From Chlamydiales bacterium (GTDB taxonomy: Bacteria; Chlamydiota; Chlamydiia; Chlamydiales; SM23-39), in assembly GCA_965261025.1 (NCBI GenBank), contig OZ253438.1, positions 1,140,001 through 1,172,000 on the forward strand: a stretch of 32,000 nucleotides of DNA, read 5' to 3'. The position numbers are program-made. How positions within the stretch are numbered: position 1 is the stretch's first letter; each line of letters starts with the position of its first letter. Of the stretch, positions 18,001 through 24,000 are shown piece by piece.

Positions 18001-21000
18001 TAATCTTGGATGAAGCGACATCTAACTTAGATAGTTATTCAGAGCACCTTATACAAGAGGCTCTAGAGAAGTTTCAGCATAAAATTACGCTAATCATCGT
18101 AGCACATAGGCTGTCCACTATTACTCAGGCAGATCAAATTTTATTTTTGGAAGAAGGATCTATTGTGGAGGCGGGGGTGCATGAAGAACTTTTACAAAAA
18201 AAAGGAAGATATGCCTTTTTTTGGGAACTCCAATCGAGAAATTTAGTTTCTAGTACAATTCTAAAGTAGAGAGGCTCCTTTAGTAAATAGGTTCTTATAT
18301 CTAGTTTCTACGGTTTTCTATTTTCTCAAGGCAGGAGGCAAAGGTAGAAGTACAGTGGTAATTTTGGTAGGTTTTTTTCGCTTGCTTTAACCTCTCAGAA
18401 AGGGTTTTTTTTTTCATAAGAGCCTCTATTTGTGGGAGAATCTCTTTTTTCCAATCTAGAATAAGATCTTTTAGGTTTAGTTTTCTTGCTTCAAAAGCAA
18501 GCCAACTGCCTTCTTTCAGTAAGGGAATTTTTCCTGAGGTGATGGATTCTACGAAAATACCAGAGGTTCCTTCCTTGTACACGAAGGGATCGTAAGGGAG
18601 AAGAAGAAAAGAAGATTGATATAAAAATGAAGCATACTCTTCTGCAGAAAGCTCTTCTTTTATAAATTGACAACAAGAGTAGGTGTGAGTAGGTAGTAGT
18701 TTCTTTCCTTTCTCAGAGAGAAGAAGCTTAAAAGTAGTTTTTTTTCTAGTTAGCTCCAAAGACAGTTTTTGGATTTCAAAGAGTCCTTTTGCCCTACGGA
18801 GAGAACCTCCAGGCCACCAAAGAAAACGAGACTTTTTCTCAAGAGAAACAGTAGAGCAAGGAGAAACTATTCCGTGAGGAATGGGAACCAAAGAAACAGG
18901 CATACGAAAAGATTGTTGTTGGCTCTTTTGTAATAGCGCGCTGTCTGTCAAAAGACGGAAATTATTTTTCCCTACTTTCCTTCGAAGGAAAAAATGGGCT
19001 AGAGTATAGAAAAGTTTCTTTTTTCCCTTGAGGTCATATCTATGCAAAATCCAGAGCTTTATCTTTTTTCTAGAAAAAAAAAGAGCCCATAAAAGAGCTG
19101 CTATGTGGAATACCTCAAAGTGCTCCAGGAAAAAAAGGGAAGAAGGAGCCATTTTTTTTATCTCTTTTTTTAAACAGAGAAAATGTTTGTATAGAAGCCG
19201 CATCTTTTCTATCTTGGTTTTTTTTTTCTGCCAAGAATCTTTTGGAAGAGACTCTTTCCAGTTTTGGGGAAGCGAAATGGAGGGTTTTTTAGGGACTAAA
19301 GCAATATAGTCCCAGCCAAGAGTTTGGACGGCTTTTTCTACCGCCTTGTGGTAGGTATAGATATGCCCTGTTTTTCCCTGTAGCAAAGGGAGAAAAGCGT
19401 AAAAGATTTTTTTTTTCATTAGAGAGGAGATTGTACAAAAGTGGAGTTTTGTGGAAGAGAAAAAAAATCACCCCTTAGGGGAAGGTATCTAATCCAAAAT
19501 AAGAAAGCGCTTTGCTTTTTCTATTTTTTGGATTTTCTTTTGCAAGCGAAAACCGTACTTTCTCGGAAAAATTTTCCCTTTTCCCCTCCCAGAAAAATAC
19601 TGCTTTGTAATTTAGCTCACATGGGGGATGTAATTTTGATGAGTTCCCTTTTCCCTATTTTACATAAGAATTTTCCCGGCATAAAGATAGGAGTTTTGAT
19701 AGCAAAAAGTTCCGGATCCGTTTTTCAAGAGCATCCTTTGATAGAAAAAATTCATTATTTAGACCACTGGAAGCTTGTAAGAGAGAAGCTCTCCTGGTTT
19801 CACAAATGGAAAAAATATAAAAAAAGCTTTCAAAAAGCTCTTTTGCAAGTACAAGAAGAAAAATACGAAGTAGCGATAGATGTCTGTTATCACTTTCCTA
19901 GCGCAGCTCCTTTTTTGTATAAGGCAAAAATTCCTGTGAGAATAGGCTATGTTTCTGCCGGGTTTTTTCCCTTGCTTACGCATAGCAAAAAATGGAAATT
20001 ACAAAAAAAATCCGCTGCAGAATATTTCAGGGATCTTCTTTCTTTTTTGACTCCCTTATCGAAAGAGTCCTTGAAACCTTCTATACCCACTCCTTTTCAG
20101 TATAAGCGTGTCTTTCCAGAATATATTCTCATTCATATGGGGACGGGAAGTGAGTTAAAAAAATGGCCTAACGCTTCTTGGAAGAAGCTAGTAGAAAAAC
20201 TGGGAAAAGAAAAACTTCCCCTGGTTTTTACAGGAAAAGGAGAAAAAGAAATGGCAGAAATAAGGGAAGTAACAGAGGGTCTTACTCGTGGCTGTTTTTC
20301 GGTAAGGCAAGTGGATTGGCAGGAGTATGTTTTTTTGATTCAAAAGGCAAAAGGACTCATTGCAGTAGATACCGTGGCGGGGCATGTTGCGGCTTGTTTT
20401 TCTATCCCCTCTGTTTTAATCTACACTGGGATCGCTCTTATAGAAAACTGGAAACCTTTAAACGAAAAAGCAGAAATCCTTTCAAAACCTCTTCCTTGCT
20501 ATCCTTGCTACAGGAGCAGAGGATGCAAGGAAATGCGCTGCATAAGAGAGGTTTCCGTAGACGAAGTTTTGCAAAAAACAAAAACGCTTCTCTATCGATA
20601 ATAATTGTTTCCTGTGTCTATGAATCCTTTCTCTATGTAGTAGTTTTGGTTTTTTTGGATGTATTCAGGAAAGGAAGAATCTATTTCTACTCTCTCAAAA
20701 TTTTGAATAGCTTGGTGGATGTTTGGAATGGTTTGCGTGCTTAGATCGAAATCCCGAAAGTGAGAAAAAGAATGGATTTTTTCCTGATAGCTTGAAAAGC
20801 CTCCCATGTTACTAAAATGCCATCCTCCTGAAGGGTAAAGATGTTTATATCTTTGTTTTCTTATTCCATCTGTTCCCAATCTTTTTACAGTAGCAAAAGA
20901 GGCGACGGCAGGACCAATCAAAGGAGAAGGATCTTTTCGGTTTAGGTAGAAACGATAAAAGTCGCATTTACAGCCCAAAACAGCCTTTTTTCTAGAAAGT

Positions 21001-24000
21001 CTGGCTAAAATCTTAGGGATCTCTTTCGGTTTTACGATCTCATCTACATCGGATACGATAACAAAATCGGTTGTTTCCAGATCTTTTAGTCCTTGGATTA
21101 ACTCACTTCTTTGGTAGGACTCCCTCTCCCAAGGGTTATCCGTTTCTTGCCACTTTTTTAATTTTATGTGGATGATTTTATCCAAATACTTGCTAAAATC
21201 TTGTTTATTTTCTTCGAAGTAAAAAGGCTTTTTATTGCCACTAAAAGTTTGGCAGGACTCTACGAGTACAAATTTTTCTACATGATCATAGAGCTCTTCA
21301 AGATGGAGTTTTAACACTTCCAGCTCATTAAAAAATAAAAAGCAATCGTAGACTTTAGCGGATAAAGAGCTAATAAGAAAAAAACATAAAAACAAAGAAG
21401 CCAACCATTTTCTCATATAGGGCCTTTCCCATTTTAGGTTAAAAACGGAGGATTTTGTTACAAGAATTCTTTAACAGCAAGGATTTTGTATTTTAAAAGA
21501 ACCCTTTTCGAAAAAGGGAAGATTTTTGTAGAGTTCTTGGTTCCTCATCGAAATTAGGAAAGTAAGGAGTTTTTTATGAAGAAGTGGTACTCGTTTTTTT
21601 TCATTTTTCTGGGAGTTTTTTTTCAGAGCTCCCTACAAGCGAAGGTATATGATTGTTTTATCTTTTTTAACGAGTTTGAGATTTTGCAGATTCGTTTAGA
21701 AGAGCTTTATGATCAGGTTGATAAATTTGTGATTGTAGAATCTGCTATGAGTCATAGAGGTCTAAAAAAGCCTTATAACCTAGAGCAAAATTGGAGCAGA
21801 TTTTCGAAATATCATGATAAGATGGTTTATCTAAAGATGGATACTTTGCACGGAGATTGTGCAGGATCTAGAGAAGACCATCAGAAAAACTTTGCGAAAA
21901 AGTGGCTTATGGAAAATGGCAAAGAGGATGATTTAGTTCTTTTCTCTGATGCCGATGAAATTCCTCCTGCTAGCTCAGTTCCTTTAGCGAAAGAACTGAT
22001 TGAAACTTATCCTGTGATTGCTTTTCAGCAGAGAATGTATCGTCATTTTTTAAACAGGGAAGCTCCTGAAACCAAAGATTGGATTGGAAGTATAGGAATT
22101 CGTCTTGGTTATTTGAAGTATGCTCCTGCGAGTTTAAACGGGCTTCGTTGTCGGATCTGTTTTGAAAAACTTCATACGGTCAATGCTCTAAAGAAGGCAA
22201 AAGGGAAAAAGGCCAAAAAAAGTCCTTATAAACTTAGCAGCGAGAAGATAAGAGTGCCCCTTATAAAAGGGGGGTGGCATTTTTCCTATATGGGGGGATA
22301 TCAAAATTTTCGGGAGAAAGTGACAAACTGGATTCATTGGGAGAATCCGAGCCCTGAGACGAAAGAAGCTTGGAGAGGAGAAGTTTTAGGACATCCTCTT
22401 GTAGAAATTGATGAAACCTATCCTCAGTTTGTACAAGACCATGTTTCTTACTTCAAAGAAGTAGGGCTCATCGACGAGTAGAGAATCTGCTTGAAGATAA
22501 AAAAGAGTCTAATTAAGTTGGTTTTTTTTAAAGAGAGGGATGTGGGTGCATATTTTCATTCCAGGAGGTGCGGGCTATGTGGGGTCAAAGCTTGTCTTAG
22601 CTCTTTTACAGAAAGGGTATAAGGTAACGGTTTTGGACCTTTTTCTCTACGGAGAAGAGGTGTTTTCCTCCTGTAAAGAGCATCCTAACCTCTCTTTGGT
22701 AAAAGGAGACATAAGGGAAGAAGCTTTAGTAGATAAAGCGCTGCAAGGTGTAGACGCAGTAATTCATTTAGCCTGTATTTCTAATGATCCTAGTTTTGAA
22801 CTCAATCCTTCTCTCGGAAAATCGATTAATTTGGATAGTTTTGAGCCCTTTGTTCTTCTTGCCAAAAAACACAAGGTAAGACGGTTTATTTATGCTTCTT
22901 CTTCTTCTGTTTATGGCGTAAAAAAAGAAAAGGATGTACAGGAAGAGGTTTCTTTAGAGCCTTTGACAGATTATTCCAAGTTTAAGGCAGAGTGTGAGAC
23001 CTTGCTTTTTCGCCATCTTAGTCAAGATTTTGAAGCCGTTATTTTAAGACCTGCCACTGTTTGTGGAGTCTCTTCTCGTCAAAGGCTTGATTTGATTGTA
23101 AATATTTTGACAAATCATGCTTTTCACAGAAAAAAAATAAAGGTACTAGGGGGGCCTCAATTAAGACCTAATATTCACATAGAGGATATGGTAAGAGCTT
23201 ATATCCATGTTTTACAGAGCCCTCGAGAAAAAATCCAAGGAGAGATTTTCAATGTGGGGTATGAAAACCACTCTGTTTTAGATCTTGCCAAAATGGTGCA
23301 GCAAAAAGTAGGTCCTGAAGTAGAAATAGAGCAGGTAGAGACAGAAGATTTGAGATCGTATCATATCTCTTCGAAAAAGATAGGAAAAAAGCTAGGGTTT
23401 TTCCCAGAGTTTACTATAGGTCAGGCGGTAGAGGATTTAACAAGAGCTTTTGAAAAGAGGGTTTTTCCTAAATCTTTGGAAAATTCGATCTATTTTAATG
23501 TAGAGCGAATGAAAGAGGTTCAGCTTATATGAGGGCCTTAGTTACAGGGGGAGCAGGCTTTATAGGGAGCCATTTAGTAGAGCTTTTACTGGAAAAAGGG
23601 CATGAGGTAATTGTTTTAGATGATCTTTCCAGGGGAAAAAAAGAAAATCTTGAAAAGATCCTCCATCATCCGAAATTTTCTTTACAGAAGAAGGACATTT
23701 GCGCAAAAAAAGAGATAGCCCCTTTTTTTGAGGGAGTAGATTGGGTCTTTCATTTAGCGGCTCTTGCAGCTATTGTTCCTTCTGTGGAAGTCCCTGAAAG
23801 CTACTTTTCTGTCAATGTAGAGGGAACTTTCGCAGTTTTAGAATGCGCTAGAAAGGCAAGAGTGGGTAAATTTCTCTATGCCGCCTCTTCTTCTTGTTAT
23901 GGTCTTTCTTCTATTTTTCCCACGCCGGAGACGGCCCCTATTGCTCCGGAATATCCTTATGCTTTGACGAAGTATTTGGGAGAAGAGCTTGTTTTACATT

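Follow-up and report, generated by a model that had tools for sequence, protein, structure and literature searches.

Why should a glycosyltransferase (GT) that depends on a nucleotide sugar begin with a signal for leaving the cytoplasm? The question is raised by two divergent genes, called GT17-A and GT17-B here, in a stretch of 32,000 nucleotides from a Chlamydiales bacterium (assembly GCA_965261025.1, contig OZ253438.1, positions 1,140,001 to 1,172,000), which is referred to as the window. By textbook account bacterial Leloir glycosyltransferases are cytoplasmic, their donors being made there and not thought to leave, and the known glycosylation in the periplasm uses lipid-linked donors and GT-C enzymes. 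The reading that we favor is that GT17-A and GT17-B are anciently diverged members of a clade that is nearly exclusive to Chlamydiota, in which a Sec-type signal has been fused to the first beta-strand of a GT-A domain, and that they are exported and act on the bacterium's own lipo-oligosaccharide (LOS) or another envelope acceptor with a host-derived donor. Taken as a whole, we give this reading about an even chance of being right. The coordinates of all features are collected in Table 1.

The family assignment of the first-pass annotation, which had named both proteins as GT17 enzymes, was confirmed by a profile search against Pfam: PF04724 (Glyco_transf_17) matches GT17-A with 90.8 bits and GT17-B with 83.0 bits, both above the gathering cut-off of 26, while a scan with NCBIfam gave no model matching either protein. 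Both open reading frames (ORFs) open at the first start codon that follows a stop. Over their full length the two proteins are 33% identical (BLASTP, E 2e-44), and the identity is concentrated at the N-terminus, where 37 of the first 60 aligned positions match (about 62%), with a far lower level beyond, much as had been stated (about 60% in the first 60 or so residues, divergence afterwards). The DxD and GGWHFS motifs that had been listed for both paralogues can be read in each of them, the former as D123-V-D125 in GT17-A and as D125-A-D127 in GT17-B.

Each protein starts with a leader that abuts the K-V-Y-D-C-F block directly. Read heuristically, both leaders have an n-region of charge +2, a hydrophobic core of 12-13 residues and L-x-A at positions -3/-1, which agrees with the usual layout of a signal peptide (a positive n-region, a hydrophobic core of 7-15 residues, and a polar c-region whose -3/-1 residues are small or neutral). 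The layout is MRK, WLASLFLCFFLI and SSLSA in GT17-A, and MKK, WYSFFFIFLGVFF and QSSLQA in GT17-B. This is the n-h-c leader of about 20 residues before KVYD that had been claimed for the pair, and there is no alternative start at the junction. Similar leaders were found on the predicted envelope proteins of the window, namely a Legionella_OMP-like protein (MKRWVMLLLALPLLLRA...), a YjbH-like protein (MQFIFFFVLLFCNLLFS...) and a hypothetical protein of 432 aa. No such leader is present on the GT9 protein, the cytoplasmic sugar-nucleotide enzymes, the other glycosyltransferase-like ORF or the remaining proteins of the cluster.

The leader is not confined to this genome. Among the 120 best matches of GT17-A it is present on about 75 to 79, which are the closest ones, and the more distant matches start with M-K-[IV]-Y-D-C-F. 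A genomic scan with one genome per species gave 80 loci (L numbers), with taxon labels as in the deposited metagenome-assembled genomes (MAGs). The leader is found at 35 of the 37 closest loci, and at one of these 35 (L010) it precedes a methyltransferase domain in a fusion; of the other two, L007 is leaderless and L021 is ambiguous. These 37 loci are mostly labeled Chlamydiota, Parachlamydiales, Rhabdochlamydiaceae, Anoxychlamydiales or similar, with some unclassified and a few Verrucomicrobia. On the other hand, none of the 37 loci from phyla outside the Planctomycetes-Verrucomicrobia-Chlamydiae group (including Flavobacterium, Lachnospiraceae, Bdellovibrio, Gastranaerophilales and Acidimicrobiia) has a leader, and L040, labeled Verrucomicrobiia, is leaderless too. 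With about 75 of the 120 homologues and 35 of the 37 closest loci carrying it, we do not regard the leader as a product of chance. The start at M-K-I-Y-D-C-F that had been given as usual for bacterial GT17s thus holds in this comparison of N-termini for the other phyla, but among Chlamydiota the leader is the rule, contrary to its description as unusual.

The strongest argument that these proteins would cross the inner membrane is that the leader evolves like a functional targeting signal: its sequence drifts, its character is kept, and it is swapped with other export signals. Over 75 leaders, the n-region is positive in 88%, the mean net charge is +1.5 before the hydrophobic core and -1.3 in the 15 residues after it, and the median uncharged stretch is 16 residues. 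In L081 (GCA_964351495.1), where the divergent GT17 pair is also present, leader identity to the window falls to 35% for A and 32% for B, compared with 76% in the mature part of GT17-A, and the GT17-B orthologue has a deletion of 5 residues in the hydrophobic core with SLQA before KVYD retained. Other homologues (P numbers) bear a lipobox followed by a tether rich in S, T, P and K, as in P0066 (LVAC, then STKPKTPP), P0068 (LIAC, then NSTPKSPP) and P0012 (LFSC, then SNNSPP); P0109 has an AVGC lipobox, signal anchors about 20 residues long are present in P0009 and P0010, and in P0071 the signal is followed by a 60-residue stem rich in K and P. The charge bias, the drift and the lipobox and anchor variants lend comparative support to the earlier proposal that the catalytic domains lie outside the cytoplasm, and the predicted export of GT17-A and GT17-B is well supported by these patterns.

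We next consider where the pair came from. The animal GT17 sequences were retrieved with a human MGAT3 sequence used as search probe only, and they served as the root of a neighbor-joining (NJ) tree, a crude method, in which they were the only eukaryotic members. In this tree the leader-bearing proteins form approximately one clade, which is near-monophyletic and lies beside clades of leaderless bacterial proteins. Within it the two proteins of the window, GT17-A and GT17-B, belong to separate subclades, and therefore their duplication is old; a recent tandem duplication was dropped as an explanation on the same ground and because the two have separate orthologues in L081 and elsewhere. The label "eukaryote-type" of the first-pass annotation could not be upheld, and an animal origin is unsupported: the identity to animal MGAT3 is 27% for GT17-A and 23% for GT17-B, compared with 33-46% to bacterial GT17s, and the pair is placed inside the bacterial radiation. 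The two proteins would therefore appear to be bacterial GT17s that gained an export signal. An exhaustive search with GT17-B gave 6,799 representative clusters at E <= 1e-3. The best 138 GT17-B matches that were new to the search include 67 with a leader, 25 leaderless ones and 35 long leaderless multidomain proteins with GT2 and GT17 domains; the B-type relatives all have leaders. As a separate observation, the long leaderless proteins (P0244, P0247, P0251, P0252, P0258, P0285 and others) measure 1,000-2,250 aa and combine a GT2-like N-terminus (MKYSIIIPTYNH...) with at least one GT17 domain, and some of these giants outscore many chlamydial homologues against GT17-B.

Does the leader sit on an enzyme that could still use a nucleotide sugar? 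An AlphaFold2 model of GT17-A, built from a 24-sequence alignment, has a GT-A fold with a mean pLDDT (per-residue confidence) of 92.9 and a pTM (predicted template-modeling score) of 0.88; the leader is modeled as a helix of its own at lower confidence (residues 2-17, pLDDT about 72), and residue 22 is the first of beta-strand 1. In a Foldseek search of the PDB the top matches of this model are GT-A enzymes such as SpsA and the chondroitin and heparosan synthases (probability 1.00, TM 0.44-0.47), and the GT-A enzymes returned also include WrtF and hyaluronan synthase. A solved GT17 structure was sought in the PDB and none was found, the sole sequence match being GmaR (E 0.014). Residues E31, E53, D117, D123, D125, E126, W199 and K213 (GT17-A numbering) are invariant over 80 leader-bearing, 40 leaderless bacterial and 12 animal MGAT3 sequences, and D125-A-D127-E128 of GT17-B is aligned with DDADEI of MGAT3. 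Because these key residues do not vary between the three groups, a catalytic site of the nucleotide-sugar type is retained and complete in both proteins. Cys113 occurs in 85% of the leader-bearing and 35% of the leaderless sequences, and Cys149 in 50% and 0%, respectively; GT17-A itself lacks Cys113. The only characterized GT17 activity is the transfer of beta-1,4-GlcNAc (N-acetylglucosamine) from UDP-GlcNAc to the core beta-mannose of N-glycans. The bacterial setting of the genes and their low identity with MGAT3 make it likely that the acceptor of the pair is a different one.

The gene neighborhood points more towards a glycoconjugate of the bacterial envelope. In both the window and L081, GT9, GmhA-like, HldE-like and MsbA-like genes of the type found in lipopolysaccharide (LPS) or LOS core loci are adjacent to the pair; the entire cluster is colinear in L081, whose GT17-A orthologue is 74% identical. 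At L003, GT17 lies inside a cluster of an epimerase, GT9, a second epimerase, a GmhA-like and an HldE-like gene, and at L004 the equivalent epimerase, GmhA-like and HldE-like genes are separated from it by about 3.4 kb; the order of the epimerase, GmhA and HldE genes is repeated in L081, L003 and L004. A GT9 or MsbA-like gene is near GT17 in L012, L017 and L034. From a scan of 114 flanking genes at 32 Chlamydiota loci, GT9 is the commonest neighbor family; next come sugar-nucleotide enzymes, GT90, GT11 and other glycosyltransferases, and neither the GT9 nor the sugar-nucleotide enzymes near GT17 ever bear a leader.

From these results the following course of events can be proposed. The leader, with its MRK or MKK start, core of 12-13 residues and L-x-A, would carry GT17-A and GT17-B across the inner membrane via Sec. 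Signal peptidase I would then probably remove it, after LSA in GT17-A and LQA in GT17-B, while in relatives its place would be taken by a lipoprotein signal or by a signal anchor that stays uncleaved. The two enzymes would have their site of action in the periplasm, on the surface of the cell or in the lumen of the vacuole. Because the cluster with GT9, nucleotide-heptose genes and the MsbA-like transporter is conserved, we infer that the acceptor is most likely the bacterium's own LOS core or another envelope glycoconjugate, reached after flipping of the MsbA type. As donor they would need a nucleotide sugar that is present outside the cytoplasm of the bacterium, and for an obligate intracellular organism the host is its most plausible source.

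Several points weigh against this proposal. We know of no nucleotide sugar that is available in the bacterial periplasm. Export has been read from heuristics and comparative patterns; L at -3 is acceptable but not optimal for signal peptidase I, cleavage would, according to the model, put the mature N-terminus exactly at beta-strand 1, which is unusual, and the distribution of cysteines does not clearly point to disulfides that set the exported clade apart. Leader-bearing copies are also present in MAGs labeled Verrucomicrobia (L006, L026, L032 and L038), and if these are free-living, the idea of a host donor weakens. In many Chlamydiota loci GT17 is located away from LPS genes, and so the acceptor may differ between paralogues. 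Finally, the leader-bearing methyltransferase fusions and sulfotransferase described below, if exported, would need S-adenosylmethionine (SAM) and 3'-phosphoadenosine 5'-phosphosulfate (PAPS) outside the cytoplasm, which is a heavy requirement.

The same leaders can be explained in other ways. They may be inner-membrane anchors that hold the catalytic domains on the cytoplasmic face, where lipid A-core would be extended with cytoplasmic nucleotide sugars before MsbA flips it, the hydrophobic N-terminus serving just to keep the enzyme close to its lipid acceptor. The genes do lie within a classical cytoplasmic LPS-core/heptose cluster, textbook assumptions confine nucleoside diphosphate sugars and SAM to the cytoplasm, and the hydrophobic segments of P0009, P0010 and P0024 are long enough to span a membrane. 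We nevertheless consider this arrangement unlikely, since the positive n-region and the acidic C-flank are the reverse of what an N-out/C-in protein requires, so that an N-in/C-out protein, or one that is cleaved and exported, is predicted; the cores of 12-13 residues in GT17-A and GT17-B are, by the lengths generally needed, too short for a stable transmembrane helix; and orthologues with a lipobox and tether would be processed only after translocation. In addition, no anchor is needed by the homologues of other phyla, those of polysaccharide loci included, and the GT9 protein of the cluster does without one on the same kind of membrane acceptor. If the domains do cross the membrane, they may also travel further and act as secreted effectors, which was the second option of the first-pass annotation. 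They would leave the bacterium after Sec, whether through type II secretion, in outer-membrane vesicles or upon lysis, and their targets would be glycans or proteins of the host, be it in the vacuole lumen, along the host secretory pathway or in the cytosol. Known glycosylating toxins and effectors of bacteria, such as Legionella Lgt/SetA and the large clostridial toxins, are delivered to the host cytosol and modify a host protein there. Some Sec-dependent proteins of chlamydiae, CPAF being one, do reach the host cytosol, and besides the Sec-type leaders this idea draws on the strong expansion of paralogues in a host-associated phylum, the many GT17 copies outside LPS clusters, and the fact that the leader-bearing families (GT17, GT11, GT90, GT47-like and Sulfotransfer_1) are generally known from eukaryotes as enzymes of the endoplasmic reticulum or Golgi lumen that build host-type glycans. 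But lipoprotein and signal-anchor variants would remain attached to the bacterium, the genes of the window, L081 and L003 are embedded in a bacterial glycoconjugate cluster, the sugar O-methyltransferase fusions suggest a methylated glycan of bacterial type, and the window holds no linked secretion-system genes, targeting domain or effector hallmarks. An effector role for the pair is in our estimate also improbable, to a similar degree, and is more conceivable for paralogues located away from LPS clusters.

A further explanation is that a Golgi type II GT17 was transferred horizontally from a eukaryotic host and that the leader is its inherited signal anchor, perhaps without function. In its layout the pair does resemble MGAT3 with its type II architecture, several of the other families that bear leaders in Chlamydiota are typically eukaryotic, and a tree whose eukaryotic sequences are all animal leaves room for a non-animal donor. 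The identities and the position of the leader clade in the MGAT3-rooted tree given above speak against it, and so does the block Y-D-C-F-x-F-F-N-E, which is common to leaderless bacteria where MGAT3 has I-N-A-I-N-V-N-H-E; there is no stem region, and the character of the leader has been kept through deep divergence, which implies selection within bacteria. We regard such a transfer as very unlikely. Hardly any credence can be given to the last candidate, in which the leader is an annotation artefact and translation truly starts at the catalytic block. It has in its favor that leaderless homologues begin exactly where the leader ends. However, no ATG, GTG or TTG is found at or near K21 or K23 (the codons before K-V-Y-D are GCT and GCG), the upstream ATG of GT17-B is preceded by a good Shine-Dalgarno sequence, a Met directly ahead of [IV]-Y-D-C-F occurs in no member of the leader clade, and more than 70 homologues retain the leader. 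A wrong start codon was dropped for these reasons.

Returning to export as the preferred reading, is the leader peculiar to GT17? Many neighbors of leader-bearing GT17s in Chlamydiota, with families assigned by Pfam, have an n-h-c leader directly before the catalytic domain (Table 1), and the same layout is present in an unassigned family at L006, L010, L011 and L018. In P0262, P0310 and L010:7296-8765 a leader is followed by a sugar O-methyltransferase-like domain (Methyltransf_24 or RMNT_CmcI) and GT17. GT11 genes of other phyla in the same data set are leaderless and start with MVAVQLSGGLGNQMF at the catalytic motif. A search with the GT11 protein of L017 gave leaders on at least 79 of the 120 nearest homologues by an automated call, which left another 30 unclassified, most of them visibly leader-bearing; those with leaders include named alpha-1,2-fucosyltransferases of Parachlamydia. 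Leaders on Leloir-type enzymes therefore appear to be a trait of the lineage and not peculiar to the GT17 pair, and the pattern suggests extracytoplasmic glycosylation across Chlamydiota. As a possible extension, which we advance tentatively and hold to be somewhat doubtful, the lineage as a whole may have relocated a toolkit for activated donors (GT17, GT11, GT90, GT47-like, GT2 with tetratricopeptide repeats, the PAPS-type sulfotransferase and the methyltransferase-GT17 fusions) to the extracytoplasmic side. The periplasm or vacuole lumen would then be Golgi-like, with envelope or host glycans being built, fucosylated, sulfated and methylated from nucleotide sugars, PAPS and SAM of the host, and the pair in the window would be its LOS-linked members.

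Table 1. Positions of the features discussed. Plain coordinates refer to the window, and those with an L number to the respective locus.
Feature	Position	Strand	Remarks
GT17-A coding sequence	20592..21416	-	274 aa; ORF; PF04724 E 1.2e-25
GT17-A leader MRKWLASLFLCFFLISSLSA	21357..21416	-	residues 1-20; predicted Sec/signal peptidase I signal peptide
GT17-A DxD motif	21042..21050	-	read from sequence
GT17-B coding sequence	21576..22481	+	301 aa; ORF; PF04724 E 2.7e-23
GT17-B leader MKKWYSFFFIFLGVFFQSSLQA	21576..21641	+	residues 1-22; predicted Sec/signal peptidase I signal peptide
GT17-B DxD motif	21948..21956	+	read from sequence
GT17-B lineage-specific basic insertion	22113..22271	+	about residues 180-232; gaps in the A/B alignment
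Divergent intergenic region	21417..21575	.	159 nt
Palindrome CCCTTTTCGAAAAAGGG, possible operator	21502..21518	.	stem-loop on both strands
Shine-Dalgarno AAGGAG of GT17-B	21564..21569	+	6 nt ahead of ATG; AGGAG kept in L081
MsbA-like ABC transporter	16452..18269	+	membrane domain and ATPase (PF00664, PF00005); kept beside the cluster in L081 and L012
Orphan protein between ABC transporter and GT9	18301..19419	-	372 aa; 374-aa counterpart at the same position in L081
GT9 heptosyltransferase-like gene	19441..20601	+	leaderless; PF01075 E 7e-21
Two SDR (short-chain dehydrogenase/reductase) epimerase/dehydratases, GmhA-like SIS, HldE-like adenylyltransferase/kinase	22540..26627	+	Pfam, NCBIfam; leaderless; nucleotide-heptose synthesis
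E1 alpha/beta thiamine-diphosphate-dependent pair, 4,6-dehydratase-like SDR, two methyltransferases	26624..31674	+	Pfam, NCBIfam; kept in L081
GT11, leader-bearing	L004:4640-7937 (three in tandem); L017:7139-7975		Pfam
GT90, leader-bearing	L034:9128-10186; L052 (L052:10029-12608 span); L028		Pfam
GT47/RXYLT1-like, leader-bearing	L052 (L052:10029-12608 span); L055:2193-3065		Pfam
GT2 with tetratricopeptide repeats, leader-bearing	L019:1007-2209; L005:6080-7228; L011; L010		Pfam
Sulfotransfer_1, leader-bearing	L012:4278-5078		Pfam; PKCGTH motif like a PAPS-binding site

When compared with animal GnT-III (MGAT3; GT17, EC 2.4.1.144), the window pair shares the Pfam family, the invariant E31, E53 and D117, the DxD-E, the G-W-H and K213, as well as an N-terminal hydrophobic segment that would put the catalytic domain on the non-cytoplasmic side. 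It differs in its low identity (23-27%), in the absence of the stem of about 150 aa, in its bacterial gene context, and in having a short, probably cleavable signal where MGAT3 has a signal anchor. Because N-glycan acceptors are lacking, specificity for bisecting GlcNAc is unlikely. The leaderless GT17s of Flavobacterium, Lachnospiraceae, Bdellovibrio, Gastranaerophilales and others have 30-40% identity over the catalytic domain, the same length and the same start of the fold, M/K-[IV]-Y-D-C-F-x-F-F-N-E; they begin at beta-strand 1 and are presumably cytoplasmic, whereas a Sec-type leader has been added in the Chlamydiota relatives.

Precedents for the proposed mechanism come from other families. 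In C. trachomatis, glycogen is reportedly made in the inclusion lumen from host UDP-glucose, which enters through a recruited host nucleotide-sugar transporter, and the lumenal enzymes are said to be of the GT5/GT35 type and exported by type III secretion. This is again a case of chlamydial Leloir-type enzymes working outside the bacterium on a host donor, but with type III secretion in place of Sec signals and with glycogen in place of envelope glycans. The LOS alpha-2,3-sialyltransferase Lst of Neisseria resides in the outer membrane and in gonococci uses the host's CMP-NANA (CMP-N-acetylneuraminic acid; PMC4324315). It is thus a nucleotide-sugar-dependent, extracytoplasmic enzyme with a scavenged host donor, as is proposed for the GT17 pair, although its family, fold and donor are unrelated, the organism is extracellular, and a single enzyme stands against a lineage-wide set. 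Lst belongs to GT52 in CAZy. Parachlamydia acanthamoebae has a DXD-containing GT6, homologous to blood-group synthases, which is metal-dependent and active in vitro (PMC3961637); it resembles the present case as a typically eukaryotic, Golgi-type family in an environmental chlamydia and differs in the family itself. In a limited search of the open-access literature, neither bacterial GT17s with a signal nor exported Leloir glycosyltransferases of Chlamydiae were found described, although such a description may still be published.

A near-exclusively Chlamydiota clade of GT-A enzymes that combines intact nucleotide-sugar sites with Sec, lipoprotein or anchor signals breaks the cytoplasmic rule, and the leader pattern is shared by a sulfotransferase and by at least four other families of glycosyltransferases. 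If the enzymes are active where their signals send them, activated sugars must be obtained outside the bacterium's own cytoplasm. The clade would then provide a handle on the extent to which chlamydiae tap the nucleotide-sugar pools of the host, on the largely unknown envelope glycans outside Chlamydiaceae, and on the provisioning of the vacuole by host nucleotide-sugar transporters beyond the single case of C. trachomatis glycogen. What is new is a known enzyme family in an unexpected compartment; the novelty of a Golgi-like, host-fed system, if it were confirmed, would be considerably greater. Because the proteins are small, soluble without the leader and present in cultivable Parachlamydia, the idea is directly testable.

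We finally describe the remaining features of the locus. Outward transcription from a shared region of 159 nt, as claimed by the first-pass annotation, is borne out by the spacer that the ORF coordinates define. No sigma-70-like site was scored in this spacer, and matches over the scanned region are no more numerous than in shuffled sequence. The spacer of L081 has 173 nt and can be aligned only in patches. The palindrome is perfect in the window, and since its core, CTTTTCG-AAAAG, is kept in this otherwise poorly conserved spacer, it may be an operator for both GT17 genes.

The insertion of GT17-B amounts to about 45 residues upstream of GGWHFS and contains C191-x-x-C194 (C-R-I-C) and a K-rich run, KKAKGKKAKK. 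It is kept in L081 and variable among other B-type relatives, and its basic character might serve in binding to an anionic membrane or LOS surface.

The 3' ends of GT9 and GT17-A overlap convergently by 10 nt (20592-20601). The GT9 protein matches the NCBIfam heptosyltransferase I, II and III models below their cut-offs, and the orphan protein beside it, which may be an unrecognized glycosyltransferase, has no match in Pfam or NCBIfam. The HldE-like protein (25098-26627) has its domains in the opposite order to that of E. coli HldE: residues 6-134, the N-terminal adenylyltransferase, match positions 323-453 of the HldE model, and the kinase is C-terminal. Within the same sugar cluster, the E1 pair is pyruvate-dehydrogenase-like and the SDR that follows is dTDP-glucose-4,6-dehydratase-like; together with the methyltransferases they suggest, as we presume, the synthesis of a two-carbon-branched and/or methylated deoxysugar. 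The 432-aa protein mentioned above (13007-14305, minus strand) matches no family, and its N-terminus (MRVFLLFIFASAFLGFSQ...) clearly resembles a signal peptide. As for the organism, the window is of Chlamydiota origin. The GC content is 38%; a GreA of 714 aa, a ThyX of 544 aa and two TyrP permeases are encoded, and these proteins are typical Chlamydiota traits; the closest named relatives are Rhabdochlamydiaceae and Chlamydiales MAGs. F-box-like N-terminal motifs (for example LPYEVFCYDIISRLP) were seen by eye on large proteins near GT17 at L009:2906-7656 and L026:5360-7708, and the presence of such a protein on a contig labeled Verrucomicrobiae hints that this MAG is host-associated or mislabeled.

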